DNA of 64,000 nt from Halarcobacter sp. (lineage in GTDB: Bacteria > Campylobacterota > Campylobacteria > Campylobacterales > Arcobacteraceae), in NCBI GenBank assembly GCA_048571215.1, contig CP182352.1, positions 32,001 through 96,000 of the forward strand, in the 5' to 3' direction. The notes beneath the pieces were generated by a model. That model was given only the letters and a program-made list of their open reading frames with translations, was not told where the DNA came from and searched no databases. The translations under genes were made by a program, and so were the position numbers. Of the stretch, positions 23,368-43,125 are shown one piece after another (the stretch's first letter is position 1; the number at the start of each line of letters is the position of its first letter).

Positions 23368-23399
23368 ATTATATATGCTTTATATAGCCTGATTATAGC
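23368..23399 (-). promoter_or_regulatory. Regulon promoter for the pedF operon
   Basis: GCTATAATCAGGCTATA (23399-23383), 9 nt, TATAAT (23373-23368). Confidence 0.8.
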
Positions 23400-23420
23400 G
23401 AGTAAAAAGTTTTGAATATT

Positions 23421-23452
23421 GCTAAATTGAGGCTATAAATCTGTTATACAAT
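23421..23452 (+). promoter_or_regulatory. Regulon promoter for the NitT/TauT-type ABC operon
   Basis: GCTAAATTGAGGCTATA (23421-23437), 9 nt, TACAAT (23447-23452). Confidence 0.8.
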
Positions 23453-23472
23453 TTGAGAATAATTTTTAAGGA

Positions 23473-24453
23473 TTGAAAATGAAAAAACATATTATTCTAT
23501 TTTTTATATGTAGTTTAGTTTTAGTTTTTGCTAATGATAAATTAAAAATTGGAGTCTTATCTTATGGAACAGTTAATTGGGAATTAGATGTTTTAAAACA
23601 TCATAATTTAGATAAAAAGTATGGCTTTGATTTAGAGTTAGTAAATATAGCTTCAAAAAATGCTCAATCAATAGCTTTATTGGCAAATGAAGTAGATATG
23701 ATAGTTCATGATTGGGTTTGGATAAATTTACAGAAAAGTAAAAATAGAGATTATATGTTTTATCCCTATTCAAAAGCTACAGGTACATTAGTTGTAAATC
23801 AAAATATAAAAGATTTTGCAGATTTAAAAGAAAAAGAACTAGGAATAGCTGGGGGAAAGTACTCTAAAACTTGGCTTTTATTTAAGGCTTTTTATGAAAA
23901 AAAATATCAAAAAGATTTTCAAGATGAGGTTTCTGTCTTATATGCATCCCCTTCAATTTTATATTTGAAGATGTTAAACAACTCTTTAGATGCAGCAATT
24001 AATTTTTGGCATTTTAATTCAAAGTTGGAACCAAAAGGGATTAGACCACTTATCTCTATAAAAGAGGTTTTAAATGAAATAGGAATTAAATCGGATATAC
24101 CTTTTATAGGTTGGACGTTTTCAAAGAAGTTTGCTATGAAGAATAAAAAACTTATAAACTCTTTTATAAGTGCAAGTCATGAAGCAAAAGAGATTTTAAA
24201 AAATAGCGATGAAGAGTGGAATAGAATAAAAAGAATAATGAAAGTAAAAGATATAAAAACTTTCAATGCATTAAAAAACGGATATAAAAAAGGGATAATA
24301 AATCATCTTGATAAAACAACAATTGAAGATATGAAAAAAGTTTATACCATATTGGCAAAACAAAGTGGTTTTAAATATGTGGATAAAAACAGCACTTTAG
24401 ATGAAAGTATTTTTTGGAATTTTAATAAAGTAAAGTTAAAAGCAAATGAATAA
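23473..24453 (+). CDS. ABC transporter substrate-binding protein, NitT/TauT type
   Basis: Signal peptide, GVLSYGTVNWELD, NFWHF; followed by permease and ATPase. Confidence 0.82.
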   Translation: MKMKKHIILFFICSLVLVFANDKLKIGVLSYGTVNWELDVLKHHNLDKKYGFDLELVNIASKNAQSIALLANEVDMIVHDWVWINLQKSKNRDYMFYPYSKATGTLVVNQNIKDFADLKEKELGIAGGKYSKTWLLFKAFYEKKYQKDFQDEVSVLYASPSILYLKMLNNSLDAAINFWHFNSKLEPKGIRPLISIKEVLNEIGIKSDIPFIGWTFSKKFAMKNKKLINSFISASHEAKEILKNSDEEWNRIKRIMKVKDIKTFNALKNGYKKGIINHLDKTTIEDMKKVYTILAKQSGFKYVDKNSTLDESIFWNFNKVKLKANE

Positions 24454-25183
24454 TACCCAATCTAAAATATGTGCTATTTTAATATTTGTAATAATCTGGC
24501 AAGGAGGATCTTTAATGGTAGATTCAAGCCTTTTCCCAAGTGCGATGGATGTGCTTAGGAATCTTTATTATAATATCTTTGAAGATGATTTATTACATCA
24601 CCTTTTTATTACTTTGTATAGGGTATTTATCTGTTTTTTTATAACTTTGTTTATAGGGATGATAATGGGTTTATTAATGGGTTTTTATGAGGAGTTAAAT
24701 GAGGTTTTAGATTTTGTATTGATTTTGGCTTTAAATATCCCAGCACTAGTAACAATAATTATTTGTTATATTTGGTTTGGGCTTACAGATTTTGCAGCTA
24801 TTTTAGCTGTAGTTATAAATAAAGTTCCCATAGTAATAGTAAATATTAGAGAGGGAACTAGGGCTATGGATAAGAAATATAGCGATTTTGCAAAGGTTTA
24901 TAAATTATCACAAAAAGAGGTTTATAAAAATGTGTATCTACCCCAATTATTCCCTTATATAATGGCTACAGTTAGACTTTGTTTATCCTTGATTTGGAAA
25001 ATTGTTTTAGTGGTTGAACTATTAGGAAGAAGTGATGGTATTGGTTTCCAAATCTCGCAGTTTTTTCAGTTTTTTGATATCACATCAATCTTATCATATA
25101 CAATATCTTTTGTTACTGTGGTGGTTTTAATAGAAAGTTATATATTAAAACCTTTAGAATTAAAAACTAAAAGATGGAAATAA
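24446..25183 (+). CDS. ABC transporter permease, NitT/TauT type
   Basis: Hydrophobic; WKIVLVVELLGRSDGIG. Confidence 0.87.
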   Translation: MNNTQSKICAILIFVIIWQGGSLMVDSSLFPSAMDVLRNLYYNIFEDDLLHHLFITLYRVFICFFITLFIGMIMGLLMGFYEELNEVLDFVLILALNIPALVTIIICYIWFGLTDFAAILAVVINKVPIVIVNIREGTRAMDKKYSDFAKVYKLSQKEVYKNVYLPQLFPYIMATVRLCLSLIWKIVLVVELLGRSDGIGFQISQFFQFFDITSILSYTISFVTVVVLIESYILKPLELKTKRWK

Positions 25184-25184
25184 G

Positions 25185-25883
25185 ATGATAAGTATAAATA
25201 TTAATGAGAAGCGTTTTAATGAAACTGTCATTTTAAAAGATCTAGATTTTTCTTTAAACAAAAGTGAATTTATATCTATAATTGGACCATCAGGTTGTGG
25301 TAAATCAACCCTACTTAATATAATCTCTTTTTTAGATAATGATTATGTAGGGAAGATTAAAGGGGAGTTTTCAAATATATCTTTTATGTTTCAAGATCAT
25401 AGACTTCTTCCTTGGCTTAGCGTAAAAGATAATCTATTGTTGGTTTCAAAAACAAAAGATGAAAAAGAGATTATTGATTTATTAGAACTTATAGGTTTAG
25501 AAAATATATTGCATGAATATCCTAATAATCTATCAGGGGGGATGTTAAGACGTGTTTCTTTAGTTAGAGCTTTTATCAACAAACCCGATTTGATACTTTT
25601 AGATGAACCTTTTATCTCTTTAGATTATCCAACTTCACAAGCTTTAAAAAAAGAGCTTTTAGCTTTTTATAATAGGTTTAAAGCAACTATAATTTTAGTT
25701 ACACACGATATAAGTGAGGCTATATTATTATCAAATAGGATTTTGTTTTTTAGTAAAAATCCAGCAAAAGTTTTATTAGATTTCAAAAATCATGATAATC
25801 AAGTTTTTAATCAAAAAAGAAATGATGAGATAAAAAACAAAATTTTAGAAAAATATCCAAAAATATTAGAAGGAAAATTATGA
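25185..25883 (+). CDS. ABC transporter ATP-binding protein, NitT/TauT type
   Basis: GPSGCGKST, FQDHRLLPW, LSGGM, LDEPF. Confidence 0.9.
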   Translation: MISININEKRFNETVILKDLDFSLNKSEFISIIGPSGCGKSTLLNIISFLDNDYVGKIKGEFSNISFMFQDHRLLPWLSVKDNLLLVSKTKDEKEIIDLLELIGLENILHEYPNNLSGGMLRRVSLVRAFINKPDLILLDEPFISLDYPTSQALKKELLAFYNRFKATIILVTHDISEAILLSNRILFFSKNPAKVLLDFKNHDNQVFNQKRNDEIKNKILEKYPKILEGKL

Positions 25884-26290
25884 TTACATACAAAAAAAGC
25901 ATAGCTATAGCGCTATTATTAACAGCCTTAAACCTAGATGCTCAAAAAATACAGGTTTTTAAACCAATTGCAAGTACTTGTCCACAAAATTGGTTGGAAG
26001 ATATGAAAGAGTTAACTAATGAAGTTGAAATTGTAAATTTAAAAGATGTAAAAAGATTAAAACATGAGATGAAAATTCCCTATGAATTACGCTCTTGCAA
26101 TACCTCTATTATGGATGATTATATATTTGAAGGAAATGTACCTAAAGAAGCTATGAAAGAGTTTTTAAAAAACCCTGTTAAAGATGCTTTAGGACTTAGC
26201 TTACCAGCCTCAGAAAATCTTAAAAAAGAGAAAACTGTATATATACTTTTTAAAAACAATACTTATAAAGTTTTTGGAAAATACAAGTAG
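25880..26290 (+). CDS. Divergent DUF411/CopG-like periplasmic protein
   Basis: Signal peptide; SCNTS and YIFEGNVP align with DUF411 SCHTA and EGHVP. Confidence 0.65.
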   Translation: MITYKKSIAIALLLTALNLDAQKIQVFKPIASTCPQNWLEDMKELTNEVEIVNLKDVKRLKHEMKIPYELRSCNTSIMDDYIFEGNVPKEAMKEFLKNPVKDALGLSLPASENLKKEKTVYILFKNNTYKVFGKYK

Positions 26291-26310
26291 CTTTAAGCTA
26301 TTTGTATTTT
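26278..26310 (+). terminator. Probable intrinsic terminator
   Basis: AAAATACAAGTAGCT-TTA-AGCTATTTGTATTTT hairpin at the end of the operon. Confidence 0.6.
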
Positions 26311-26373: not shown

Positions 26374-26405
26374 GCTATAATCTAGCTATATCAAAAAGTT
26401 ATAAT
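26374..26405 (+). promoter_or_regulatory. Regulon promoter for the porin gene
   Basis: GCTATAATCTAGCTATA (26374-26390), 9 nt, TATAAT (26400-26405). Confidence 0.75.
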
Positions 26406-26452
26406 TTTAATCAAGCTTTTATTAGTTTGACAAAATTATATAGGGGAAAGAA

Positions 26453-27655
26453 ATGAAAAAAAGGCTAGGGTTAATTAGTTTAGTTGCATCAATTGCAGTT
26501 ACATCTATGCAAGCGGGAGAGTTAGATTTAATCTCAGATTTAAAGATTAGTGGAGATGCAAGAGTTAGAGGAGTTTCAGTAAAGGGTGATACTGCAACTT
26601 CAGGTTCAACAGCTGCTACAAGACAAGATAAACAAAAATTTGAGTCAAGACTTAGATTAAATCTTGATTTTAAAGTAGATGATAGTGTAAGTATACATAC
26701 TAGAATTGTTGCAGATAATAATGCATGGGGAAACAATAATAATGATACTTTTACTTGGGATGAAGCTTATGTTGTTGTCCCATTCAATCAAGATAAGTTT
26801 TTATTAGCTGGTAGAATAGAAGATAGTTATGGTACTAAATTTTATGGTAGTAATGGTGATCCTATTGATTTAGCTTTAGTGGGATATAACCCAAAACCAA
26901 ATATTTTATTATATGCTTTTGATTATAAAGCAGTTGAGGGGTCTGTTGTAGATCAAGGTTCAAGTCTAGGTTTAAGTAATACTGGAAATGGGGACTTTGA
27001 CGCATACTCTATTGGTGGGCAAATCACTATTGATGAGATGTTAATGGGTGGTAGATATGTTTATTTACAAAATAATACTGCAATTGGTGGTGGCGCTTAC
27101 GCAGATGCAAATAGCCATATGTATAATGCTTTTGCCCTTGGGAAATATGCAGGACTTGATATTCAAGCACAAGTTGAAAAAAGAACAGGGGATAAATACT
27201 CTGGTGGTATTGTTGATGAAAAGATGTTTGGTGCATATCTAAATATAGCAAAAGATTTTGGAGATTTCAAAGCAGGACTTTCTGCTGTTAAAACTGAAAA
27301 GGGTTATGTTTCTGGCTCTGAATTACCTGTGTCATATTTAACTAATGATGATTTAGGTATGGCTGCACTTGGTAGAGTTGGAGCTTATGGAGATACTTCA
27401 CTTTATGCAGCAAATTTTTCTTATTCTCCTAGTGCAGATTTAACTTTTGAAGCAAATCTTGCTCATCATTCTATTGATAATGCAAGTTTTAATAGTATAA
27501 ATAAAGATTTAGAAATAATGGAATATGATGTAGGTTTATCTTATAATCTTACAAAAAACACTCAATTATCTTTAAGATATGCACAGGGTAATTTTGATGA
27601 GGGGAATTTAGAGGATCTATCAGTAGTAGTTGGTGCAGTAGAAATTAGTTTTTAA
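26453..27655 (+). CDS. Outer-membrane beta-barrel porin
   Basis: Signal peptide, ISGDARVR first strand, alternating amphipathic strands, C-terminal Phe; no plug domain. Confidence 0.8.
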   Translation: MKKRLGLISLVASIAVTSMQAGELDLISDLKISGDARVRGVSVKGDTATSGSTAATRQDKQKFESRLRLNLDFKVDDSVSIHTRIVADNNAWGNNNNDTFTWDEAYVVVPFNQDKFLLAGRIEDSYGTKFYGSNGDPIDLALVGYNPKPNILLYAFDYKAVEGSVVDQGSSLGLSNTGNGDFDAYSIGGQITIDEMLMGGRYVYLQNNTAIGGGAYADANSHMYNAFALGKYAGLDIQAQVEKRTGDKYSGGIVDEKMFGAYLNIAKDFGDFKAGLSAVKTEKGYVSGSELPVSYLTNDDLGMAALGRVGAYGDTSLYAANFSYSPSADLTFEANLAHHSIDNASFNSINKDLEIMEYDVGLSYNLTKNTQLSLRYAQGNFDEGNLEDLSVVVGAVEISF

Positions 27656-27701: not shown

Positions 27702-28166
27702 TTAAAAAATAACCTCTTCAATAATCTTTTTTATATTTTCATTTATCTCTTTTGCCATTTTTTCATCTTTTTTCAAAGGTTTAAATTTCATATATGAAAT
27801 GTAAAAGAAGTTTTGATTTTTTGTTTTATAAACAGCAAGTGAAAATGGACAAAAAAGAATATTATCTGGATTTTCAGCTAAAAGTCTAAAGGTAACAGAA
27901 CTTTTGCAAAAGGCAAGTTTTTTACTAAATTCTAAGTTAGATTTTTTATCTATAAGTTTTCCAATATTTTTAGTAAGCTTTGCAAAATCACCTTCATAGA
28001 CTATTTTATATCCATTTGCAAGTAGTTCATTTTTTAAAAGTAAGTATGTAGTTTGAATACTCTCTTGGCTTAGTTTATATTTTACAAAATAATCAGTCTC
28101 ATAAACTTCAATTTTAGCAAACAGCGTAGAAAAAAGTAAAATTATAAGTATAAGATATTTTATCAT
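27702..28166 (-). CDS. DUF302-like periplasmic protein
   Basis: Signal peptide; FC...ENPDNILFCPFSLAVY pattern. Confidence 0.65.
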   Translation of the reverse strand: MIKYLILIILLFSTLFAKIEVYETDYFVKYKLSQESIQTTYLLLKNELLANGYKIVYEGDFAKLTKNIGKLIDKKSNLEFSKKLAFCKSSVTFRLLAENPDNILFCPFSLAVYKTKNQNFFYISYMKFKPLKKDEKMAKEINENIKKIIEEVIF

Positions 28167-29311
28167 TGTTCACATCTCATCTCAAACTTTGCAACACCTA
28201 AGGTATCTAAATCTGTTAGGGGATGTAAGAATCCAACTTGTGGGGAAGTTGATATTAGTGCTCTTGGTTGAACTAAGGCTATTGGGGTTCTTAATTGACC
28301 ATTAAAGTCTCTAAAAGAGAGCTTTCTTCCCATATATGCACCAATTTCAAACTCTTTTGAACGTATAAATTTTATATTTTTTTCCAATGAAGCTGTTTGG
28401 GTTTTTGCAATTGAACTAATAATTGTTCTAATAGCAACCCAGTTTGAAAAATCTTTTTGTTCCATCCATCTTTTAGCAAATTTTTCAAATCTGCTTTGCA
28501 TTTGTGCAGCTCCCCAGGCTTCTATTACTTTATGCCATTGTAAAGGTTTAAGTCCTTGAGTTCCAGCTATTGGTCTAGGAAGCCAGGTATTAAAAGATAA
28601 AAACTCACCAAAATCTCCATAAAAATCTGCCACCATTACAAGATCATAATCGCTAGCTTGTGTAAATGCTGGAAATTCAGCTGTTGCTTTTCTTCTAATA
28701 TCACTATTGTTTTCCCAAACTTTTTCTTTAACAATAGAAGCACCAAATTTTTTGATTGACTTTTTCATATCCTTTTTTATCTCAATATCTTTTGGATTTG
28801 TTCCACTAATCAAAAAAATCTTTTTAAAATTTCGTTTTACTAAAAACTGAACTAGTCCATCATAAAGCATACTATTACTAGGAATTGTATGTATAAAGTT
28901 TTGTTTACAATAGTCTTTTCTAAGATTTGTATTAAGACTGCTTGCATTTATAAGTAAGGCTTTTGAAGATAATTTAGAATTGATTAGTTTTTTTAGTAAT
29001 TTAGTTTCAACATTTAGTATAATATATGAGTTCCCTTCATTTATAAACTTATTAAAAGCTTCAATAAGTTCATTTTCATCATAAGATATTTTTTCAATTA
29101 GATTAAAATGTTGGTTTAGAAATCTTGCACTTTTATTACTATCTTTTACTGCAAGTCTTGCACCTTGTATTCCTAAATCTTTTGGTTCTTCAATTACATT
29201 TGAAAGTACGGGTGGTTTTTTAATTTTTTGTTCTAGGTATAAAATATTTACATCCAAAGTTTGTGCACTTAAAAAACTTGTTAATAAAAATAAATAGATA
29301 ACTAATCTCAT
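28163..29311 (-). CDS. ABC substrate-binding protein of the PQQ-ADH system (PedA1-like)
   Basis: DGLVQFL, DFYGDFG, TWLPRPIAGTQGL, SPQVGFLHP...LDTLG; true start likely ATG 29311 (signal peptide, RBS, promoter lies within the longer ORF call). Confidence 0.85.
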   Translation of the reverse strand: MRLVIYLFLLTSFLSAQTLDVNILYLEQKIKKPPVLSNVIEEPKDLGIQGARLAVKDSNKSARFLNQHFNLIEKISYDENELIEAFNKFINEGNSYIILNVETKLLKKLINSKLSSKALLINASSLNTNLRKDYCKQNFIHTIPSNSMLYDGLVQFLVKRNFKKIFLISGTNPKDIEIKKDMKKSIKKFGASIVKEKVWENNSDIRRKATAEFPAFTQASDYDLVMVADFYGDFGEFLSFNTWLPRPIAGTQGLKPLQWHKVIEAWGAAQMQSRFEKFAKRWMEQKDFSNWVAIRTIISSIAKTQTASLEKNIKFIRSKEFEIGAYMGRKLSFRDFNGQLRTPIALVQPRALISTSPQVGFLHPLTDLDTLGVAKFEMRCEQ

Positions 29312-29337
29312 AGTATCCCTTTTAATTGATTTTAATA

Positions 29338-29369
29338 AGTATATTAAAGTTTTATAGCCTGAATTTAGC
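29338..29369 (-). promoter_or_regulatory. Regulon promoter for the pedA1-like gene
   Basis: GCTAAATTCAGGCTATA (29369-29353), 9 nt, TATACT (29343-29338). Confidence 0.8.
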
Positions 29370-29381
29370 AAGAATTACCTT

Positions 29382-29413
29382 GCTAAACTGAGGCTATAAA
29401 GATGGTATAGAAT
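29382..29413 (+). promoter_or_regulatory. Regulon promoter for the pedA2BC-like operon
   Basis: GCTAAACTGAGGCTATA (29382-29398), 9 nt, TAGAAT (29408-29413). Confidence 0.8.
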
Positions 29414-29440
29414 GGCATAAATAAAAAATTGGAGTGGGAA

Positions 29441-30400
29441 ATGAAAAAATTGATTTTATCTGGAGTTCTAATTTCAAGTGCACTTTTTGCCGATACAATT
29501 TATGTATCAAATGAAAAGGACAATACAGTAAGTGTAATTGACTCTAAAACAAATAGTGTTGTAAATACTATAGAGGTTGGTCAAAGACCAAGGGGTATAT
29601 TATTATCAAATGATTATTCAAAACTTTATATTTGTGCAAGTGATGATGACACTGTCCAAGTTATGGATACAAAAACAAATAAAATTTTATATAATCTACC
29701 ATCAGGAGAAGATCCAGAACAATTTGCATTAACTCCAGATAATAAAGAGCTTTATATCTCAAATGAGGATGATGCAATTGTAACAGTTGTTGATACTGAA
29801 AAGAGAACTGTTTTAGCACAAATTGATGTTGGAGTTGAGCCTGAAGGGATGGCAGTAAGTCCAGATGGTAGTGTTGCAATAAATACAACTGAAACTTCAA
29901 ACTTTTTACACTGGATAGATACAAAAACAAAAAAAATCATCCACAATACTTTAGTAGATCAAAGACCAAGACATATTGAGTTTTCCAAAAATGGGGATAT
30001 GGTTTGGGCATCAAGTGAGATTGGTGGAACAGTTATGGTTGTAGATGCAAAAACTAAAAAATCTGTTGCTAAGATAGGTTTTAAAATACCTGGTATATTT
30101 AAAGATTTGATTCAGCCAGTTGGAATAAAACTAACAAGTGATGGAAAATATGCTTTTATAGCACTTGGACCTGCTAATCATGTTGCGGTTGTTGATGCCA
30201 AAACATATAAAGTAATCAAATATTTACTTGTAGGAAAAAGAGTTTGGCAATTAGCTTTTGTAAATGGGGAGGATAAACTTTACACAACAAATGGAGTTAG
30301 TGGGGATGTATCTATTATAGATGTGCCTTCATTAAAAGTTGAAAAAAGTGTAAAAGTTGGAAGATACCCTTGGGGACTTGCTGTAATACCAAGTAAATAG
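29441..30400 (+). CDS. PQQ-catabolism-associated YVTN beta-propeller protein (PedA2-like)
   Basis: YVSNEKDNTVSVID, VGQRPRGI, VGVEPEGMAVSPDG, VGRYPWG repeats; start ATG 29441. Confidence 0.9.
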   Translation: MKKLILSGVLISSALFADTIYVSNEKDNTVSVIDSKTNSVVNTIEVGQRPRGILLSNDYSKLYICASDDDTVQVMDTKTNKILYNLPSGEDPEQFALTPDNKELYISNEDDAIVTVVDTEKRTVLAQIDVGVEPEGMAVSPDGSVAINTTETSNFLHWIDTKTKKIIHNTLVDQRPRHIEFSKNGDMVWASSEIGGTVMVVDAKTKKSVAKIGFKIPGIFKDLIQPVGIKLTSDGKYAFIALGPANHVAVVDAKTYKVIKYLLVGKRVWQLAFVNGEDKLYTTNGVSGDVSIIDVPSLKVEKSVKVGRYPWGLAVIPSK

Positions 30401-30402
30401 TT

Positions 30403-31125
30403 ATGAAAGAAAATATCTTAGAGTTTAAAAATGTAAATTTTTCATATGGTAAAAAAGAGGTTTTGAAAAATGTATCTTTTAATATTAAAGAGGGTAGCTT
30501 TTTTGTTCTTCTTGGATTGAATGGTGCTGGTAAATCAACGATTTTTTCCCTTATTACAAGACTTCTAAAATTGGAAGAGGGAGAGATTAATATCAATTCA
30601 AATCCGATAAAAAACTACTCAAAAGCTTTAAAAGATATTGGAATAGTTTTTCAAGAGCCAACCTTGGATTTGGATTTAAGTGTTAAGCAAAATCTTTATT
30701 ATTATGGGGCATTAAAAGGGCTTAGTTTTAAAAAAACTATGGAAAGTGTAAAAGATGAAATAGAAAAACTTGAACTTCAAAACCATTTAGATATCCCTGC
30801 AAGAAAGTTAAATGGTGGTCATAGAAGAAGGGTTGAAATTTTAAGAGCTTTGATAGATAAACCTAAATTACTACTTCTTGATGAAGCAACAGTTGGTTTA
30901 GATTTAAAAAGTAGATTTGATATATTGAAATATGTAAAAAGTTTGGTTAAAACTCAAAATATATCAGTGTTATGGATTACTCATCTTTTTGATGAGGTTG
31001 ATGAAGAGGATTTTGTAGCTTTGATAAAAACGGGAGAGATAATTGAACAAACTACAGTAAGTGAACTTTTATCAAAACATAAACAAGAGAATTTAGTTGA
31101 TACTTTCAACTATCTAACAAGGTAG
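30403..31125 (+). CDS. ABC ATP-binding protein of the PQQ-ADH system (PedB-like)
   Basis: GLNGAGKST, FQEPTLDLDLSV, LNGGHRRRVEI. Confidence 0.88.
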   Translation: MKENILEFKNVNFSYGKKEVLKNVSFNIKEGSFFVLLGLNGAGKSTIFSLITRLLKLEEGEININSNPIKNYSKALKDIGIVFQEPTLDLDLSVKQNLYYYGALKGLSFKKTMESVKDEIEKLELQNHLDIPARKLNGGHRRRVEILRALIDKPKLLLLDEATVGLDLKSRFDILKYVKSLVKTQNISVLWITHLFDEVDEEDFVALIKTGEIIEQTTVSELLSKHKQENLVDTFNYLTR

Positions 31126-31128
31126 ATT

Positions 31129-31911
31129 ATGAATATATATTTAAATTGTCTAAAAGGGATAATATACAAAGAATTAATAAGATTTTTAAAACAAAAAAGT
31201 AGATTCTTTTCAGCACTTGTAAGACCTTTGCTTTGGTTATTTATTTTTTCAGTAGGATTTAAAACTGCTTTAGGTTTAGCAATAATTCCTCCATATGAAA
31301 CCTATATCACTTATGAAACATATATAGTTCCAGGTCTTGTGGGGATGGTTTTGCTTTTTAATGGGATGCAAAGTTCTTTAACTATGATATTTGATAGAGA
31401 GATGGGAAGTATGAAAATACTTTTAGCATCTTATATAAATAGAAATTATCTTTTATTTTGTAAAATGTTTGCAACCTCTCTTGTCTCAACTATGCAGGCA
31501 CTAACTTTTTTAGTGATTGCAAAACTTTATGGAATTGATATCTCCATTATTGCTATTATTGCTACTATTCCAGTGATAATAATCTCTTCAATTGTTTTAA
31601 ATGCTTTTGCACTTTTTATCTCTTCTGTTATAAGACAGTTAGAAAACTTTGCAACAGTTATGAATTTTGTAATTTTTCCTATGTTTTTCTTAAGTTCAGC
31701 ACTTTATCCCCTTTGGAAAATAAAAGATTCTTCACTTATTTTATTTAACATCTCATCATCTAATCCTTTTACTTATATTGTAGAAGCTATTAGGTTCAGT
31801 TTGTATTTAAAAGTAGATGAAAAAAGCTTTATAATAGTTGGTATTTCCTTGGTTATAACCCTAGTTATGGCATTTTTAGGATTTAAATCTAAAAAAGTTA
31901 ATAATGGCTAA
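31129..31911 (+). CDS. ABC-2 permease of the PQQ-ADH system (PedC-like)
   Basis: SALVRPLLWL, IIPPYETYITYE, QLENFATVMNFVIFPMFFLSSALYPLW. Confidence 0.88.
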   Translation: MNIYLNCLKGIIYKELIRFLKQKSRFFSALVRPLLWLFIFSVGFKTALGLAIIPPYETYITYETYIVPGLVGMVLLFNGMQSSLTMIFDREMGSMKILLASYINRNYLLFCKMFATSLVSTMQALTFLVIAKLYGIDISIIAIIATIPVIIISSIVLNAFALFISSVIRQLENFATVMNFVIFPMFFLSSALYPLWKIKDSSLILFNISSSNPFTYIVEAIRFSLYLKVDEKSFIIVGISLVITLVMAFLGFKSKKVNNG

Positions 31912-31938
31912 ACTGAGGCTATAAACCTCATGTATACT
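31907..31938 (+). promoter_or_regulatory. Regulon promoter for the PQQ-ADH/pqq operon
   Basis: GCTAAACTGAGGCTATA (31907-31923), 9 nt, TATACT (31933-31938). Confidence 0.82.
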
Positions 31939-33790: not shown

Positions 33791-33865
33791 ATGAAATGGG
33801 AAACACCTGCATTTATAGATAATAGATTTGGTTTTGAAGTTACAATGTACATTTGTCATGTATAA
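33791..33865 (+). CDS. pqqA: PQQ precursor peptide PqqA (not in the ORF track)
   Basis: MKWETPAFIDNRFGFEVTMYICHV*, E-x-x-x-Y motif, AGGAGG RBS, upstream of pqqB. Confidence 0.95.
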   Translation: MKWETPAFIDNRFGFEVTMYICHV

Positions 33866-33901
33866 GTGATACTTCATATTATAGTTTTAAATTTAAATAT
33901 T

Positions 33902-33969
33902 AAAAGTAAGTCAGATTTTTCTGACTTGCTTTTTATAAAAAGTTTAAAGGGAACTTTTTATAAAAAGCA
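33902..33969 (+). terminator. Two overlapping hairpins between pqqA and pqqB
   Basis: AAAAGTAAGTCAGA/TCTGACTTGCTTTT stem, and a perfect 18-bp inverted repeat at 33927-33944/33952-33969. Confidence 0.7.
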
Positions 33970-33982
33970 GATGGAGTAAAAG

Positions 33983-34900
33983 ATGAGAATACAAGTATTG
34001 GGTTCAAGTGCTGGTGGAGGACTTCCACAATTTAATTGTAATTGTGATAATTGCAAAGGTTATAGAGAAGGAAAAACAAGTATTAAAAAAAGAACTCAAA
34101 GTTCAATCACTATAAGTGAAGATGGAGAAAATTGGGTTTTATTTAATACTTCCCCAGATATTTTAGAACAAATTCATAACTCACCGTTTTTACAACCAAA
34201 AGATGCAAGACGCGAAACTAAAATAAAAGCTATAGTTTTTATAGATGCACAGATTGATCATACAACAGGGCTTTTGATGTTAAGGGAAGGTTGTCCCCAT
34301 GAAGTTTATTGTACAAAAGAGGTTCATGAGGAACTAAATACTTCATTTCCTTTATTTAAGATGCTTACTCACTGGGATGGTGGAGGAGTTAAATATAATG
34401 AGATTTCATTTAATAAACAACCATTTGAGATACCAGTTATGCCAAACTATGAGTTTTATGCAATGCCCTTAATCTCAAATGCACCACCATATTCAAAATA
34501 TAGAGATAAACCAAGAGTAGGGGATAATATTGGAGTTGTAGTTAAAAATAAAACTACAGGAAAAAAACTTTTTTATCTTCCAGGACTTGGAGTTGCGGAA
34601 CCTAGAATTATTCAAGAGATGAGTGAAGCAGATATTTTACTTGTTGATGGAACTTTATGGACAAATGATGAGATGATAAGAAATGGTTTTTCAACAAAAC
34701 TTGGTACTGATATGGGACATATCCCATTAAGTGGAGAGGATGGTCTTATAAAAATACTTGATGGTATGAGTAAACCAAGAAAAATACTAATACATATAAA
34801 TAATACAAATCCAATTTTGGATGAAACAAGTAAAGAATATGCCCAACTTATATCACATGGGATAGAAGTGTCTTACGATGGTATGAGTATAGAGATTTAA
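33983..34900 (+). CDS. pqqB: PQQ biosynthesis protein PqqB
   Basis: LGSSAGGGLPQFNCNCDNC, RTQSSI, QIDHTTGLLMLREG, LIHINNTNPIL. Confidence 0.96.
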   Translation: MRIQVLGSSAGGGLPQFNCNCDNCKGYREGKTSIKKRTQSSITISEDGENWVLFNTSPDILEQIHNSPFLQPKDARRETKIKAIVFIDAQIDHTTGLLMLREGCPHEVYCTKEVHEELNTSFPLFKMLTHWDGGGVKYNEISFNKQPFEIPVMPNYEFYAMPLISNAPPYSKYRDKPRVGDNIGVVVKNKTTGKKLFYLPGLGVAEPRIIQEMSEADILLVDGTLWTNDEMIRNGFSTKLGTDMGHIPLSGEDGLIKILDGMSKPRKILIHINNTNPILDETSKEYAQLISHGIEVSYDGMSIEI

Positions 34901-34925
34901 TAAAGAAGATAAAAAAGGAAATATC

Positions 34926-35222
34926 ATGAAAAATATAGTGATTGTAGCTAACGTTAAAGTAAAAGATGGATTTAAAGATGAAGTTTATTCTGAACTTTTA
35001 AAATTACATGAAGCAACTCACAAATATGATGAGGGGTGTATTCAATACGATTTGCACAAAAACTTAGATGATGAAAATAGTTTTACTTTTGTAGAAACTT
35101 GGCAAAATGCAAATCTTTTAGAAGAGCATATGAAAAAAGAACATTTTTTACAATTTGCTCAATCTGTAGATGGTAAATTAGAAAATTTGGATATACAAAA
35201 ATTAGAAAAAGTTAATTTATAA
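34926..35222 (+). CDS. ABM-family (putative quinol) monooxygenase
   Basis: DEGCIQYDLH, FTFVETW, LEEHMKKEHF. Confidence 0.85.
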   Translation: MKNIVIVANVKVKDGFKDEVYSELLKLHEATHKYDEGCIQYDLHKNLDDENSFTFVETWQNANLLEEHMKKEHFLQFAQSVDGKLENLDIQKLEKVNL

Positions 35223-35234
35223 AAGGAGAAGAAA

Positions 35235-35990
35235 ATGACAAAAAGAATGGATAGATTATTATCAAAAGAAGAGTTTGAAGCAAAACTAAGAGGTATGGGT
35301 GAGATGTACCATATTCATCATCCTTTCCATATAAGAATGTATGAAGGTACTTGTACTAAAGAGGAGATTAAAGGTTGGGTTGCAAATAGATTTTATTATC
35401 AAACAGCAATTCCAATTAAAGATGCAGCAATTATGTCAAATAACCCACCACTAGAAGATAGAAGAAAGTGGATTGATAGAATTATAGACCATGATAGTGT
35501 AGGTGGTGGAATAGAGGCTTGGTTAGAACTTGGTGAAGCTGTAGGACTAGATAAAGAGGATTTGATTTCTCACAAATATGTATTACCAGCGGTTAAGTTT
35601 GCAGTTGATGCTTATGTAAATTTTGCAAAACAATCTCCATGGAAAGAATCTGCAATGTCTTCATTAACTGAGATGTTTGCACCACAAATTCACCAACAAA
35701 GACTTGATACTTGGCCTAAAAACTACCCTTGGATAGAACAAAAAGGTTTAAGATATTTTCAAAAAAGATTAACAGAAGCAAGAAGAGATGTACAACATGG
35801 TTTGGCTTTAACTTTAGAAGAGTTTAATACTGTTGAACTACAAAATAGAGCTTGCGAAATTTTACAGTTTAAACTTGATATATTATGGGTTATGGTTGAT
35901 GCTTTATATTTAGCTTATGAGCTTAAAAGACCACCATATTTTAATATAAAGGGTTGTAATGCAACTAGAAAAATCACTTGTAGTGAATAA
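35235..35990 (+). CDS. pqqC: Pyrroloquinoline-quinone synthase PqqC
   Basis: [44 protein letters not shown]. Confidence 0.96.
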
Positions 35991-36228
35991 TCACTTCCAA
36001 TTACAATATGAAGATGCCCAAGAGTGTTTTGTTTTACTCTATCCAGAAGGGATGGTTCAACTAAATCAAAGTGCAGGTGAAATAATGAATCTATGTGATG
36101 GGAAAAACTCTTGTTTAGATATTGCTAAAATATTGGAAGAAAAGTTTAATATGAGTGATTTAAAAAAAGATGTGGAGGCTTTTTTAATTGAGGCCTTAGA
36201 GCGTAAGTGGGTGATGTATGAAAACTGA
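35959..36228 (+). CDS. pqqD: PqqA-binding chaperone PqqD
   Basis: [19 protein letters not shown]. Confidence 0.94.
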
Positions 36229-37330
36229 TATTAAACCACCTCTTTGGATGCTTTTAGAGTTGACTCATAAGTGTCCTTTGGAGTGTTCATATTGCTACAA
36301 CCAACTAGATTTTGCTAATACAAAAGATAGTATGAGTAAAGAAGATTGGTTTAGGGTTTTAGAAGAAGCACGGGCTATGGGTGCAGTTCAATTAGGACTC
36401 TCTGGAGGTGAGCCTCTTTTAAATAAAGACATTTTAGAGATTGTAAAAAAAGCTAGTGATTTAAAGTTTTATACAAATCTTATAACCTCAGGAGTTGGGG
36501 CTGATTTATCAATAGTTCCAAAACTAAAAGAGGCAGGATTAAAAACTGTGCAACTTGGGATTCAATCCCACGATGCAAATACAACTGCCCTTATTACAAA
36601 TAATAAAAATGCCCAAGCAGATAAAATAGCTTTTGCAAAAGCTTGTAAAGATAATGGTTTACAACTTATTGTAAACTCATGTATCACTAGACAAAATATT
36701 CATCAAATTGGTGAGATAATTGAGTTTGCTGATTCAATTGGTGCAAACTATTTAGAAGTGGCAAATATACAATATTATGGTTGGGCATTAGAAAATATAA
36801 ATGCCCTTTTACCAACACAAGAGCAACTAACAAAAGCAAAAGAGATTGTGGATTATTACAGGGAAAAAAGAAAAGATATGAAAGTGTTTTTTGTAGTTCC
36901 AGATTATTTTGCAACTAGACCAAAGGCATGTATGAATGGTTGGGGAACTACCTTTTTAACTATCAATCCAGATGGTTTAGCACTTCCATGTAATACAGCA
37001 AATACTTTGCCTTTAGAGTTTCCAAATGTAAAAGAGTATAGTGTAGCCCAAATATGGAATGATTCTGAAGCCTTTAACTTCTTTAGAGGTGATAAGTGGA
37101 TGAAAGAACCTTGTAGAACTTGTCCTGAAAAAGAGGCAGATTTTGGTGGATGTAGATGTCAAGCATATGCTTTAACAAAAGATATGAATGAAGCTGATCC
37201 TGTTTGTGATAAATCAAGTTATCATAATGTGGTTTTAGATAAAGTTGAAACGGCTTTAAAATCTACAAACAAACCAATTTATAGAAATAAACAAAATTCA
37301 TTAATATTTTCTAACAAAACAAGAGTATAA
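36218..37330 (+). CDS. pqqE: PqqA peptide cyclase PqqE (radical SAM-SPASM)
   Basis: ELTHKCPLECSYC, PKACMNGWG, DFGGCRCQA. Confidence 0.96.
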   Translation: MKTDIKPPLWMLLELTHKCPLECSYCYNQLDFANTKDSMSKEDWFRVLEEARAMGAVQLGLSGGEPLLNKDILEIVKKASDLKFYTNLITSGVGADLSIVPKLKEAGLKTVQLGIQSHDANTTALITNNKNAQADKIAFAKACKDNGLQLIVNSCITRQNIHQIGEIIEFADSIGANYLEVANIQYYGWALENINALLPTQEQLTKAKEIVDYYREKRKDMKVFFVVPDYFATRPKACMNGWGTTFLTINPDGLALPCNTANTLPLEFPNVKEYSVAQIWNDSEAFNFFRGDKWMKEPCRTCPEKEADFGGCRCQAYALTKDMNEADPVCDKSSYHNVVLDKVETALKSTNKPIYRNKQNSLIFSNKTRV

Positions 37331-39053: not shown

Positions 39054-40382
39054 GGGAGTGTTAGAAAATCTGTGTCAGTCTGATATAATAAATATTATAA
39101 GGATTGATATAGATGGAAAAGAAAAAACAATTTGATTTTAATGAAGCTGTACAAGATTTACTTGCAGGTAAAAATATCAATGGTAAAGATGGAGTACTTG
39201 CTCCATTAGTAAAACAATTAGTTGAAGCTGCTTTAGAAGCAGAATTAGATTCTCATATAACTCAAGATGTATTTGCAGGAAATAAAAATAGAAAGAATGG
39301 TAAAAGCTCTAAAACAATAAAATCAACAAGTGGTTCCTTTGAATTGAATACTCCAAGAGATAGAACAGGTTCTTTTGAACCACAACTTGTAAAGAAAAAC
39401 CAAACAACAATGTCTAATGAAATAGAAGAAAAGATATTATCTATGTATGGCTTAGGATTAAGCTATAGAGATATTATAAAACATATTGAAGAGATATATC
39501 AAATACAATTATCAAGTGCAACAATAAGCACTATTACAGATAAAATTATAGATAAGGTAAAAGCTTGGCAAAGTAGACCTTTAGAAGCTATTTATCCATT
39601 TGTATGGCTTGATGCGATACATTATAAAATAAAAGATGGTGGGAAGTATGTGAGTAAAGCAGTTTACACAGTTTTAGGGATGGGAATTGATGGTAAAAAA
39701 GATATATTAGGATTATATTTATCCCAAAGTGAAGGAGCAAACTTCTGGCTTAGTGTTCTTACTGATTTAAATAATAGAGGATTAGAAGATATACTAATTG
39801 CATCAGTAGATGGTCTTAAAGGCTTTCCTGAAGCTATTAAAACAATATATCCAAATACCGAAGTACAACTTTGTGTTGTACATCAAATTCGTAATTCATT
39901 GAAGTATGTAGCTTCTAAAGACCAAAAAGAGTTTATGAGAGATTTAAAACTTGTTTATCAAGCAACAACAAAAGAACTTGCAGAAGATGAGCTTTTAAAA
40001 CTAGATGAAAAATGGGGAAAAGATATCCCATAGTACTTCAATCTTGGCAAAATAAATGGGAGAATTTATCTTATTATTTTAAATATCCAAAAGAGATAAG
40101 AAAGATTATGTACACTACAAATATTATTGAATCTGTACATAGGCAATTTAGAAAATTAACCAAAACAAAAGGAGCTTTCCCTAATGAGAATTCACTTTTA
40201 AAATTGTTGTATATGGGAATATTAAATGCAAAAGTAAAATGGACTCAGCCAGTGCATAATTGGAGTTTAACAATCTCCCAACTTGCTATATTTTTCGAAG
40301 GGAGATTGGATAATTATTTAGAGTTGTAACAAGTATGGATTTGTTACTTTAGGTGACTTGACACAGATTTTTGAACGGTCTC
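39054..40382 (+). mobile_element. IS256-family insertion sequence, 1329 bp
   Basis: Imperfect 24-bp terminal inverted repeats (39054-39077 and 40359-40382, 19/24 match); 8-bp duplication TAAATTTA at 39046-39053 and 40383-40390. Confidence 0.93.
39113..40329 (+). pseudogene. IS256 transposase split by a one-base frameshift
   Basis: PRDR, WLDA, DGLKG, QLCVVHQIRNS in ORF1; YTTNIIES in ORF2; frames switch at GGGGAAAA 40014-40021. Confidence 0.88.
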
Positions 40383-40392
40383 TAAATTTATT

Positions 40393-41052
40393 CTAATGAG
40401 GTCTTTCAACCATATACCCAATACCTCTAATGTTTATAATAAAATCCTCTTTTAGAACTTTTTTTACTCTATTTACTTCTGCTCTTATTGTTGCATTATC
40501 TATATAGTCATCGTTCCATACATAATCCCTAAACATATCATAATTACAAACCAAACTTCTATTTGCTGCAAGCAAGTCTATTATTTGTATTTGTCTTTTA
40601 GGTAAAATTTGAGGCTCATTATTAAACAATAAAATCATATTTTTTGAATCATAACTATAAGATTTTGATAATCTTTTATGTTCTTGTGGAACAATATTTG
40701 TTTTTAGAATTTTATTTATTCTAAGGGTTAGTTCTTTTAAATGAAAAGGTTTTTTTAGATAATCGTGACAACCTATATCAAAAGCTCTTGTAATATCTTC
40801 AATATCTATTAGTGCAGATATAAAAATAGTAGGTACCATCCTTTTTTGTTTATGTAAATCTTCTAAAATAGATATTCCATCTTGATCTGGAACATTTATA
40901 TCAAATACTAAGAGGTCAAATTTATCTTCTGCTAAAGCTTCTTTACATGAATTCCCATCAGTTACTGAAATAACTTTATGTCCAGTTGAATTAAGATATT
41001 GAGTTATTGCTTTATTTAACATAATATCATCTTCTAATAGTAATATTTTCAT
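40393..41052 (-). CDS. OmpR/PhoB-family response regulator
   Basis: LLEDD, FDINVPD, DYLKKPF receiver motifs; winged helix ending NIRGIGY. Confidence 0.92.
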   Translation of the reverse strand: MKILLLEDDIMLNKAITQYLNSTGHKVISVTDGNSCKEALAEDKFDLLVFDINVPDQDGISILEDLHKQKRMVPTIFISALIDIEDITRAFDIGCHDYLKKPFHLKELTLRINKILKTNIVPQEHKRLSKSYSYDSKNMILLFNNEPQILPKRQIQIIDLLAANRSLVCNYDMFRDYVWNDDYIDNATIRAEVNRVKKVLKEDFIINIRGIGYMVERPH

Positions 41053-42944
41053 TTAGATCCTTTAAATAAATAAGTAAAACTTGTTTGTTCTGAATTTGAT
41101 TTTACATCTATGGATACATTCTCTTCCTCACAAATTCTTTTAACTAAATTTAATCCTAGCCCAAAACCATCTTTTGAATGCTCTTCTCTATAATATTCAT
41201 CAAATATTTTTTCCGGTTCTTGAATTCTTTTTGAATGACTAGCAACTGAAAATATAATGTTTTGTTTATCTTTCATAAGATCAACTTCTATACTCTCTCC
41301 TTCATAAGTATATTTAATAGCATTTGTTAAGGAGTTATCAATTATCCTTTGCAGTTTAGTCTCACTAAATTCTATTATAATTTTTGTAGCATTTGTTCTA
41401 AAAATAAATTCAGAATTTGTCATATTTGTAGCAACATTTTTAAAAAATTCTATTCTACTTCTAAGGTAATCTATAAAATCTATTGAATAAACTTTATATT
41501 CAATTTGATCTTTTTTCACTAAATAACTCAAGTCATCATATATGGAGAAGATGTTTTTAACTGCAACTTCAATATTTTCTAAATAGATACTTTTCCCATG
41601 TTCCATCTCATGTAGATCAATATTACTTACAATAACAGACAAAGGGGTATTTGTTTCATGAACAGAATGTTTTAAAAATATTTTTTGATTTTTTAAAAGT
41701 TGTTCAGAATATGCTATTTGTTTTTCTAAAGCTTTAGATTGCTCATTTTGGTCTCTTGCACTTTGTTGAATAAGGTTTGTCAATGCTTGAATAGTTCTTG
41801 CATATGAAAGATCTTGAGGGTTAACCATATTATTGGAAGGGGCAATTTTTTTATTTAGGTGGGGATTTTCCGATAAACCAACTAAAGTAATAGTTTGGTT
41901 CATAAGTTTGTTTTGTTTATTTGTATGGAAAAACTCAGCATAAGTAAAAAATCCAGAAGTTGTAGATATAGAAGCAAAGGGATCAATCTCTATTTTTGTT
42001 AAGTTTTGCATATATCTACGTCTTGCCATGCACGAGTATACAAAAAAAGTTTCAGAGGGTTGTGATTCTATATTTTTTAGATAATCAAAAGGTGTATTGA
42101 TAATTCTTTCAGCATCTGCAAATCCAAGTCTTACTTTATCTCCTTCATATAAACCACCTGCACAACCTAAGCTTCCATCGGGATATTTTGTAACAGTTGC
42201 CCTTGCTATAAAAATACCATCTCTTTGGACGATTAGAGGAAACTCAGTAAAAGTAGCTAGATTTCCACCACCTAAATATTTTTCATAAAAATCTATGGCT
42301 TTCATTCCTGAAATCTCATAAATTCTATTACCCTCTATTTTATCAATAGTATGTTCTATCCCTATTGGAGACCAACCATGTTTAATGTCATTTGCAACTT
42401 GAAGTACATCAGAGTTTAAAGATACGGCAACTGCACCTTGGCTAATAACTGTTGTACCTAAGCTAATATAAGTTTTTTGAAATTTTCCATTATCACCAGC
42501 CATTCCACCACAAACCATAGTTGAGTCACTATAAGAGTTTATCCCATTTAGATATTTTTCACCATCTGTTGAAGTACTATCTGTAAACGATATAATTAGT
42601 TTTGAATTTGGTGTAACTATATCTTGTGCTATCTCATAACCATTTTTAAAAGAGTCATCATTATTTTTATATGAACCTTTTATTGTAGTATTTTCAAAAA
42701 CGCAGATTGCTATTATAGTTTTTAGTGTTGAAACTTCTCCATCTCTTATCTCCCCATCTGTTGTGCTACCTATACAAATAGCTTGGGGAATATTTTCTTG
42801 TAGTAATTTTGTTAAATATTGAAGTGTACTTACATTTTGACCACAAAATATTTGAACTAAGATATTTTTTTCATTTTCAAATAGCTTGTAATCTATTTTA
42901 TTTTCAAATTGATTGTTTTCATAAGTATAATTGTATGTTTTCAT
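41049..42944 (-). CDS. Soluble FIST-domain sensor histidine kinase
   Basis: FIST motifs GSTTDGEI, GGMAGD, YSCMARR, GFFTYAEF; H-box HETNTPL, NAIKY, GFGLGL; no TM helix seen. Confidence 0.88.
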   Translation of the reverse strand: MKTYNYTYENNQFENKIDYKLFENEKNILVQIFCGQNVSTLQYLTKLLQENIPQAICIGSTTDGEIRDGEVSTLKTIIAICVFENTTIKGSYKNNDDSFKNGYEIAQDIVTPNSKLIISFTDSTSTDGEKYLNGINSYSDSTMVCGGMAGDNGKFQKTYISLGTTVISQGAVAVSLNSDVLQVANDIKHGWSPIGIEHTIDKIEGNRIYEISGMKAIDFYEKYLGGGNLATFTEFPLIVQRDGIFIARATVTKYPDGSLGCAGGLYEGDKVRLGFADAERIINTPFDYLKNIESQPSETFFVYSCMARRRYMQNLTKIEIDPFASISTTSGFFTYAEFFHTNKQNKLMNQTITLVGLSENPHLNKKIAPSNNMVNPQDLSYARTIQALTNLIQQSARDQNEQSKALEKQIAYSEQLLKNQKIFLKHSVHETNTPLSVIVSNIDLHEMEHGKSIYLENIEVAVKNIFSIYDDLSYLVKKDQIEYKVYSIDFIDYLRSRIEFFKNVATNMTNSEFIFRTNATKIIIEFSETKLQRIIDNSLTNAIKYTYEGESIEVDLMKDKQNIIFSVASHSKRIQEPEKIFDEYYREEHSKDGFGLGLNLVKRICEEENVSIDVKSNSEQTSFTYLFKGSK

Positions 42945-43058
42945 ATTGTAATTGTAACATAAAAATTGAATAATTTTTATAAAAATATCAATAAAATTAA
43001 AATGCTATTTTATTGCTACTAATGCCATAATATAGGGATTTGTTGACTAAAATACTTC

Positions 43059-43125
43059 GCTATATTCACGCTATATTAAAGATTATTTTTTTGGCTATAT
43101 TGAGGCTATAATTATAGAGTAAACT
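43059..43125 (+). promoter_or_regulatory. Tandem regulon boxes and promoter of the aldehyde dehydrogenase gene
   Basis: GCTATATTCACGCTATA (43059-43075); GCTATATTGAGGCTATA (43094-43110), 9 nt, TAAACT (43120-43125). Confidence 0.8.

Follow-up and report, generated by a model that had tools for sequence, protein, structure and literature searches.

A 17-nucleotide (nt) direct repeat, GCTAWA-N5-GCTATA, recurs in a stretch of the Halarcobacter sp. genome (GenBank assembly GCA_048571215.1, contig CP182352.1, positions 32,001 to 96,000), and it raises the question of which protein reads it and what signal that protein conveys. The window is this whole stretch of 64,000 nt, and its numbering is used here unless genome positions are specified. 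We found that the repeat, hereafter the box, marks the transcription units of aldB and of a gene cluster for a pyrroloquinoline quinone (PQQ) alcohol dehydrogenase that its sequence assigns to the lanthanide type. The box is almost certainly functional. Sequence comparisons indicate that it is very likely read by the product of an adjacent gene, the OmpR-family response regulator at 40393-41052 (minus strand). We regard as moderately probable the whole account, in which this regulator binds the box and activates alcohol- and aldehyde-oxidation genes when a soluble FIST-domain histidine kinase senses an aldehyde.

Re-reading the sequence confirmed all eight copies that a previous examination of the letters alone (the sequence-only reading) had listed, on the strands given there. 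The box at 23383-23399 (minus strand) precedes an operon encoding cytochrome c550 (pedF), a binding protein, a SoxYZ-like carrier and a metallohydrolase, and its -10 hexamer is TATAAT at 23373-23368. On the plus strand, the box at 23421-23437 precedes an ABC transporter operon (23479-26290; TACAAT at 23447-23452) and that at 26374-26390 a gene for a 400-residue putative outer-membrane protein (TATAAT at 26400-26405). A pedA1-like substrate-binding protein gene (TIGR03863) follows the box at 29353-29369 (minus strand; TATACT), and pedA2-pedB-pedC (TIGR03866, TIGR03864, TIGR03861) that at 29382-29398 (plus strand; TAGAAT). The box at 31907-31923 (plus strand; TATACT) stands before the PQQ alcohol dehydrogenase gene and pqqABCDE. 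Two copies lie on the plus strand at the aldB promoter: a proximal one at 43094-43110 (TAAACT at 43120-43125) and an upstream tandem one at 43059-43075, which, as claimed, has no -10 hexamer of its own. The other seven are each followed by the claimed -10 hexamer after exactly 9 nt.

The window holds 8 matches, compared to a mean of 0.04 in shuffled sequences, and none of 100 shuffles reached 8. Hexamer counts in the genome predict about 0.01 pair per 20 kb. These shuffles, the co-occurrence of box and regulator among genomes and the out-of-sample 9-nt spacing rule out chance or an AT-rich artefact as the origin of the box. A hexamer spacing of 5 gives 10 matches in the genome, and the other spacings from 0 to 15 give between 0 and 8. 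The resulting period of 11 bp lies within the 10-11 bp of OmpR/PhoB-type boxes.

The distance to the -10 hexamer is also conserved in relatives. In loci that were fetched by protein position and not by box pattern, we found 147 distinct exact 17-mers, and TANNNT occurs at offset 9 in 114 of them. The next most frequent offsets are 11 (34 cases) and 7 and 18 (23 each). Of the 33 17-mers lacking TANNNT at offset 9, 30 have a further half-site downstream and are upstream tandem copies like that at 43059, which is therefore a conserved second site of the aldB promoter. It is 35 nt upstream in Halarcobacter and mostly 22-23 nt upstream in relatives, where arrays of 3-5 half-sites also occur at aldB. 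While the hexamer pair stands as originally described, the spacer, given there as N5, is not random: among the 114 sites, T occupies position 8 in 108 and A position 10 in 98.

If transcription is assumed to start about 7 nt behind the -10 hexamer, the box spans -38 to -22. It thus lies at a fixed distance upstream of the -10 hexamer and over the -35 position, as at class II sigma70 promoters. In PhoB-type class II activation, the pho box is located just upstream of the -10 hexamer, and a direct repeat with an 11-bp period replaces the -35 element; the PhosR and DccR boxes of C. jejuni are examples. Such boxes differ from the Halarcobacter box in half-site sequence, signal and targets. Two window copies can be read as GG-N10-GC, as in sigma54 promoters, which could suggest an element for an alternative sigma factor. 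However, G precedes the first hexamer in only 30 of the 114 sites and a sigma70-type -10 hexamer follows the box, ruling out a sigma54 promoter.

The genome is a single contig of 3.61 Mb with 28.5% guanine-cytosine (GC) content. The genome-wide motif scan that had been recommended found 10 exact box copies, 8 of them in the window. One of the others, with -10 hexamer TACTAT, precedes a gene for a 399-residue protein resembling type II NADH dehydrogenases (genome 3430510, minus strand), and one without a -10 hexamer lies inside a coding sequence (genome 294247). A copy with one mismatch and the -10 hexamer TATAAT precedes a soluble FIST chemoreceptor gene (genome 2911731, minus strand). In a matrix scan that included the -10 hexamer, nine promoter sites scored 24.9-36.0, and the next hit in the genome scored 17.3. 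The statement that no copy lies outside the block is thus correct for the window but not for the genome. Judged by such sites, the regulon reaches beyond the block, and the comparisons below extend it across families.

To identify the protein that reads the box, we turned to 184 Arcobacteraceae genomes, in which the best match with E <= 1e-90 was taken as the regulator orthologue. The box occurs in 99 of these genomes and tracks the adjacent OmpR-type regulator and soluble FIST kinase. All 56 genomes with both the regulator and the PQQ enzyme have at least two exact boxes with a -10 hexamer (median 6). Where the regulator occurs without the PQQ enzyme, 33 of 42 genomes have at least one such site (median 1), and where both are missing, 9 of 85 have one and none has two. 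A reversed-pattern control yielded no site in any of the 184 genomes. A single genome has the PQQ enzyme but no scored regulator, and in it the regulator gene, located where expected, is broken.

The constant core of these loci is the regulator-kinase pair, divergent from aldB, and the box is kept with the regulator where PQQ genes are absent. In reshuffled clusters, the box stands before the new units, for example where the pqq genes are split from the dehydrogenase (L119, L123, L124). Further targets in relatives are an NADH-dehydrogenase-like gene, a FIST chemoreceptor, a NosR-like/ApbE pair, an extended pqq operon and, in four loci, eutBC. The sequence-only reading had proposed that one OmpR-type regulator, with 40393-41052 as the candidate, binds at about -38 to -22. 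Its tracking by the box over 184 genomes and the persistence of the box without PQQ genes support this proposal, as does the fact that, in another family, the box moves with the regulator to unrelated target enzymes. The regulator has the receiver and winged-helix domains expected for an OmpR/PhoB-type box (PF00072 and PF00486, i.e. REC and Trans_reg_C), and it is this type of protein that co-occurs with the box in the genome survey, at aldB promoters and in the second family. Its Asp51 and Lys101 are invariant. As a separate observation, the NosR-like 4Fe-4S membrane protein gene is headed by a box in three genomes of genus g2 (L097, L098, L037), with apbE next in L097 and L098.

The aldB promoters were scored with a matrix built from window sites only. 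All 40 aldB loci with an adjoining kinase and/or regulator score 16.0-20.8, and 17 regulator-less loci of one genus score 0.3-10.4. Four points temper the conclusion that the adjacent regulator reads the box. On a tree of 56 of the 60 aldB loci (4 were removed by a length or stop-codon filter), the 17 regulator-less loci form a single clade and therefore represent one loss and not 17; we dropped these genomes as independent replicates. In addition, a site that resembles the box and scores 17.2 lies at aldB in G117, a genome without the regulator. The remaining two points relate to a paralogous regulator: its recognition helix is almost identical to that of the aldehyde-type regulator, and several regulator-less aldB promoters (among L131-L147) keep an 11-bp repeat of the type associated with it.

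This paralogue (genome 2391910) is 56% identical to the regulator and is paired with a membrane sCache_2 kinase. Its system (genome 2390346-2397434; 2405020) precedes a VC_2705-family symporter operon. A sister box, GCTATM-NNNWT-GCTATM, occurs with the same 9-nt geometry before this operon and, in relatives, also before pta, acs and gltA. From these targets, the paralogous system is probably an acetate regulon of Arcobacteraceae. The near-identical recognition helix accounts for the hexamer shared by both boxes, and cross-talk between the two regulators is possible. The boxes of the alcohol cluster might therefore be read mainly or jointly by the acetate regulator, with the adjacent regulator serving to refine the response. 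The shared geometry and helices and the acetate-type repeats in regulator-less genomes speak for this idea, and the latter suggest that aldB was rewired to the sister regulator after the loss. However, most genomes without the adjacent regulator keep the weaker-scoring paralogue (G003, G117, G130 and G181 were examined), yet the alcohol-type box appears in just 9 of 85, and most of these 9 genomes owe their single hit to an acetate-type site in front of acetate genes. Moreover, the spacers differ, with A at position 10 in the alcohol-type box and WT before the second hexamer in the sister box. We consider it improbable that the acetate regulator is the main or joint reader. Regarding the claim that one regulator controls the whole block, the comparative tracking supports control, but exclusivity does not follow in view of the paralogue.

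The adjacent regulator very probably acts as an activator, as had been suggested; this view is based on the fixed distance to the -10 hexamer and on analogy with the experimentally studied PceP (PMC7755780). PceP/PceS (RR2/TCS2) of Sulfurospirillum likewise involves an OmpR-family regulator of Campylobacterota and repeats with an 11-bp period over the -35 position (PMC7755780). PceP has CTATA half-sites with 6-nt gaps and a -10 hexamer of type TANNAT; its binding was shown by electrophoretic mobility shift assay, and activation was inferred by its authors (PMC7755780). By contrast, the PceP consensus is CTATW-N17-CTATW (the first and third repeat), its kinase is a seven-helix membrane protein for tetrachloroethene and its targets are reductive dehalogenases (PMC7755780), whereas the Halarcobacter system has two adjacent GCTAWA/GCTATA hexamers as its unit, a soluble FIST kinase and alcohol/aldehyde-oxidising targets. 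The Halarcobacter box thus shares the half-site and period with the PceP regulon, to which it does not belong. SulR provides another case of direct repeats in Campylobacterota (PMC12936845).

A site that overlaps the -35 position could also be the operator of a repressor that blocks this region until a signal releases it. TATAAT near aldB is somewhat commoner after loss of the regulator, though not decisively so (9 of 17 regulator-less loci versus 10 of 40 with the regulator). However, a repressor would not need the invariant 9-nt register (114/147), and transcriptome data were used to argue that PceP, whose identical half-site also covers the -35 position, is an activator (PMC7755780). Repression is therefore very unlikely.

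Given that the dehydrogenase is of the PedH type and that the pedA1A2BC-like genes are headed by boxes, the box might instead serve to switch between PedH- and PedE-type enzymes in response to lanthanides. However, genomes with both enzyme types have a box before both (L111, L113, L115/116, L117/118), which rules out a lanthanide-switch operator, and the box persists where neither type was found. We assign an extremely low probability to the lanthanide switch and the alternative-sigma element taken together. The lanthanide-type enzyme is the sole type in most family members with a PQQ dehydrogenase. At least four genomes (G043, G048, G090, G107), and probably G017, have only the calcium type, with pedA1/A2 absent in the regions viewed, and four (G155, G156, G168, G170) have both types, each behind the same box.

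The box is not restricted to Arcobacteraceae. Full-length kinase orthologues (52-57% identical) are present in 15 sampled genomes of another family, which homologue names suggest to be Sulfurospirillum, and in one genome of a third. We fetched 17 loci around kinase orthologues outside Arcobacteraceae. In 12 of them, a box with 0-1 mismatch and a -10 hexamer at 9 nt precedes a divergent molybdopterin aldehyde oxidoreductase (NF045668, 1588 bits, cut-off 1100; 86-100% identical within the set). Another has the box before an AFOR-family enzyme, another has it at a contig end, and yet another follows the accessory genes of the oxidoreductase, which itself stands behind a two-mismatch box. When five whole genomes outside the family were searched with a relaxed box, two yielded a single site each. 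In two genomes of the second family, at L240 (G249, from 1614 onward) and L254 (G388, from 640 downward), a box also precedes an Fe-S gene, which in L240 is followed by a membrane subunit gene. We take this Fe-S gene to be HyfA/CooF-like and possibly part of a hydrogenase-4-like operon. A second regulator copy (61-66% identical) is present in genera g5 and g21 (L237, L238, L239), sometimes alongside a further FIST kinase; no box was found near these copies.

NAD-dependent, molybdenum and AFOR-family aldehyde-oxidising enzymes, which are mutually unrelated, thus occupy the same regulatory slot. This placement of three unrelated enzymes under one regulator suggests an aldehyde signal, and we judge an aldehyde to be the likely signal of the FIST kinase. 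In S. multivorans, a molybdenum aldehyde oxidoreductase was 142-fold more abundant in pyruvate fermentation, and an aldehyde intermediate was suspected by the authors (PMC6242987). This enzyme is presumably encoded by the gene beside the FIST kinase orthologue.

The kinase (41049-42944, minus strand) comprises FIST (residues 29-213), FIST_C (216-340), HisKA and HATPase domains. It has no transmembrane segment (hydropathy maximum 1.19), which fits a small permeant ligand. A structural model of the FIST part is confident (predicted local distance difference test score 90.8), and its best structural match is human FBXO22 (Z 20-21, at best 21.3; root-mean-square deviation about 3.1 over about 250 residues, 249 aligned). 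The next matches are chorismatase and Toblerone-fold hydrolases (Z 11-13). A FIST_C profile also ranks FBXO22 first among solved chains and aligns Cys305 and Glu337 of the kinase with C326 and E362 of FBXO22, so that the kinase combines a FIST fold with the equivalent Cys and Glu. Cys305, Arg308 and Glu337 are invariant in 20 kinase orthologues and paralogues, and His429 is likewise listed as invariant. In FBXO22 (PDB 8S7D, 8UA3), aldehyde degraders add reversibly to C326 to give a hemithioacetal, and activity is lost on the E362A substitution (10.1101/2025.08.29.673087, PMC11208438, 10.1101/2023.11.01.564830). While FBXO22 shares the fold (Z about 21) and the Cys/Glu pair in FIST_C, it is an E3-ligase adaptor, its identity to the FIST model is 13-14% and its aldehyde binding was shown for synthetic degraders only. 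When the whole kinase, its FIST part, two other profiles or a Ruegeria FIST protein served as queries against the sequences of solved structures, no FIST hit appeared; the short FIST_C profile alone reached FBXO22. An atlas search returned FIST clusters only.

A number of findings argue against an aldehyde as the signal. The sequence match of FIST_C to FBXO22 is weak (E 0.06), and the aldehyde ligands of FBXO22 are synthetic (10.1101/2025.08.29.673087, PMC11208438, 10.1101/2023.11.01.564830). The Cys/Glu pair is present throughout FIST domains (158/162 and 160/161 domains; Cys in 12 of 12 diverse ones). It also occurs in three further FIST proteins of the Halarcobacter genome (142546, 749482, 934731), of which one is stand-alone before a kinase and two are fused to kinases, and no aldehyde genes were found in the stretches viewed around them. 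The pair alone therefore does not single out aldehydes. Some targets are not aldehyde-related (the NosR-like/ApbE pair and the Fe-S/HyfA-like operon), no box pointing at eutB was found in the Halarcobacter genome, and two of the 17 loci outside the family (L225, L236) have the kinase pair but no box, nor an oxidoreductase anywhere in the genome. Finally, characterised bacterial FIST proteins are described as haem or nitric oxide (NO) sensors (PMC12570481).

The last point leads to an alternative with the same regulator and box, in which the kinase senses haem/NO or redox state, like NosP, or the alcohol itself. NosP FIST proteins are haem binders through which NO regulates kinases (PMC12570481). 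A NosR-like protein and an NADH dehydrogenase-like enzyme are among the targets of the box, and H198 and H340 of the kinase are conserved in at least 90% of the orthologue set. As to alcohol, a P. putida ped cluster reporter responds to added alcohols (PMC12551699). However, the kinase scores 43 bits on the NosP model NF041558 (cut-off 450) and is fused where NosP is stand-alone, so it is not a NosP protein, and no His is conserved in more than 50% of the wider kinase subfamily. Moreover, the constant targets are aldehyde-oxidising enzymes of three non-homologous kinds, and the regulator persists in 42 family genomes where no PQQ alcohol dehydrogenase was found. We consider these other signals unlikely.

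With an aldehyde as the signal, the system could work as follows. A small aldehyde, probably acetaldehyde arising from periplasmic PedH, ethanolamine lyase or fermentation, would reach the cytoplasm. It may then be caught as a reversible adduct on Cys305, a hemithioacetal whose formation Glu337 would help, as in the FBXO22 Cys326/Glu362 pair; by this analogy, we give the step an even chance. That His429 of the kinase phosphorylates Asp51 of the regulator is highly probable from the gene pairing. A head-to-tail regulator dimer would occupy both hexamers, which lie at about -38 to -22 and are separated by one helical turn, thereby covering the -35 position, and would help sigma70 RNA polymerase at the -10 hexamer, where both the identity of the binder and activation appear very likely. 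One output would be aldB and the type II NADH dehydrogenase-like enzyme, leading to aldehyde oxidation and NADH turnover. A second would be the PQQ enzyme with cofactor, cytochrome and metal-uptake genes, creating positive feedback, and a third the FIST chemoreceptor.

Two kinds of known systems resemble this one in part. In Pseudomonas ped/exa, NosP-NahK (PA1975-PA1976, which are PP_2663-PedS1) combines a FIST sensor and a kinase in a PQQ alcohol-dehydrogenase cluster, which shares porin, pedABC, pedF, SoxH-like and aldB genes with the Halarcobacter block (PMC12997753). However, the Pseudomonas FIST domain is a separate protein that is read as an NO sensor, and the output runs via the LuxR-type AgmR and PedR2 (PMC12997753); in Halarcobacter, FIST is fused to the kinase and the output is an OmpR-type direct-repeat box. 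Aldehyde recognition in P. putida was proposed for a different sensor, the YiaY-YiaZ pair (PMC12551699).

AfdRS/RfdRS of Rhodobacter and FlhRS of Paracoccus are two-component activators of aldehyde-oxidation genes (PMC4776306). A review calls their sensing mechanism unknown and notes an extra gene (afdT/rfdT/orf2) between regulator and kinase; in an rfdT mutant, adhI expression was unchanged (PMC4776306). These systems differ from that of Halarcobacter in regulator context. On a Ruegeria plasmid (NZ_CP031947.1; L252, 11684-24807), a regulator, a NosP-like FIST gene and a PAS protein gene have the afdR-afdT-afdS layout, and these three genes adjoin formaldehyde dehydrogenase, fghA and xoxF5. 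No box copy was found in the 40-kb Ruegeria region.

The promoter design is thus of a known kind, exemplified by PceP, but this regulon was not found in print. No description of the box or regulon turned up in the literature searched, which was incomplete for subscription papers and did not extend to supplements. In that literature we also found no paper on lanthanide alcohol dehydrogenase in Arcobacter and no description of the lanthanide-type PQQ dehydrogenase that the survey located in 57 of the 184 family genomes. The A. butzleri genome paper, in the portion of its text that was available, mentions two aldehyde dehydrogenases and not PQQ, FIST or ethanol (PMC2147049).

What emerges is a testable regulon, complete with box, regulator, sensor and targets, through which Arcobacteraceae and Sulfurospirillum would use alcohols and aldehydes. 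Should no more than the box and regulator stand, the result would be useful, as a new OmpR regulon of an ordinary kind; the interest rests on aldehyde sensing more than on the motif itself. FIST domains could at root be covalent aldehyde sensors that use the Cys-Glu pair, from bacteria to human FBXO22, an idea that we hold tentatively and rate slightly below an even chance. If it is true, this system is a clear natural example, with one FIST kinase, regulator and box wired to NAD-dependent, molybdenum and AFOR-family aldehyde-oxidising enzymes, to eutBC and PedH, which produce acetaldehyde, and to a FIST chemoreceptor. It would also explain why NosP lies within the ped cluster of Pseudomonas and by what means AfdRS/FlhRS could detect formaldehyde. 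Further, it would bear on why the Sulfurospirillum aldehyde oxidoreductase is induced 142-fold and on what the natural ligand of FBXO22 in humans is.

We now describe the genes of the block, which run from a relay metallohydrolase, SoxYZ-like carrier, binding protein and cytochrome c550 PedF through an ABC transporter, a putative porin, pedA1/A2/B/C-like genes, the dehydrogenase, pqqABCDE, a SulP-family transporter, IS256, the regulator and the FIST kinase to aldB and DUF779. Profile hits identify pedF, SBP_bac_3, the SoxYZ-like carrier (TIGR04557) and the relay metallohydrolase (TIGR04558) at 20374-23332 (minus strand), the pedA1 and pedA2BC-like transporter genes at 28163-31911, and pqqA, pqqB, an ABM-domain gene, pqqC, pqqD and pqqE at 33791-37330 (plus strand). 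The proteins encoded at 26453-27655 (400 residues, probably in the outer membrane) and 27702-28166 (154 residues, exported) have no Pfam or NCBIfam match, and both are conserved in the cluster; the former may be a porin. The most constant target, aldB (43162-44688, plus strand), encodes an aldB/exaC-type NAD-dependent aldehyde dehydrogenase (NF050026, 834 bits, cut-off 900), and a DUF779 protein gene, recognised by its domain, follows at 44744-45124 (plus strand).

The PQQ alcohol dehydrogenase (31989-33767, plus strand) is the only copy found in the genome. It best matches the P. putida-type PedH structures 6ZCW/6ZCV, with 889 bits versus 677 for ExaA. An extra active-site Asp, replacing the Ser of PedE/ExaA, marks lanthanide-type enzymes (PMC5487730). 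The Halarcobacter enzyme has Asp where ExaA 1FLG has Ser, in a segment identical to 6ZCW/6ZCV, and by this sequence criterion it is of the PedH/ExaF lanthanide type. In the survey, PQQ alcohol dehydrogenases were found in the same 57 family genomes, and 377 sampled genomes from other Campylobacterota families yielded none.

The block had been called an island, a label that does not fit. Its GC content (0.26-0.38) matches that of the genome (0.285), the position from pepA to aldB is shared in most of 10 relatives viewed, and the regulon extends outside the block. Together with the absence of an integrase among the window open reading frames scanned, the ordinary GC content and recurring position rule out a recently acquired foreign island and indicate a patchy family module.

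The IS256 element (39054-40380, plus strand) has a frameshifted transposase gene and an 8-bp target duplication. It lies between sulP and the stop codon of the regulator gene, outside the regulon, and its location past both stop codons rules it out as the source of the repeat or as a disruptor of the regulator. The frameshifted transposase has at least five other identical copies in the genome, and at least two copies are intact.

Another minor observation concerns a relative in which a contig (L194, G019:C75:1-9370) holds a box-headed pqqBCDE operon with genes for three U32-family proteins, two of which have sub-cut-off similarity to UbiU. The operon also contains a second pqqE, a branched-chain aminotransferase-like gene and a gene for a hemerythrin/PAS protein. 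We speculate that it represents a variant for oxygen-independent synthesis of PQQ or of a related peptide cofactor.

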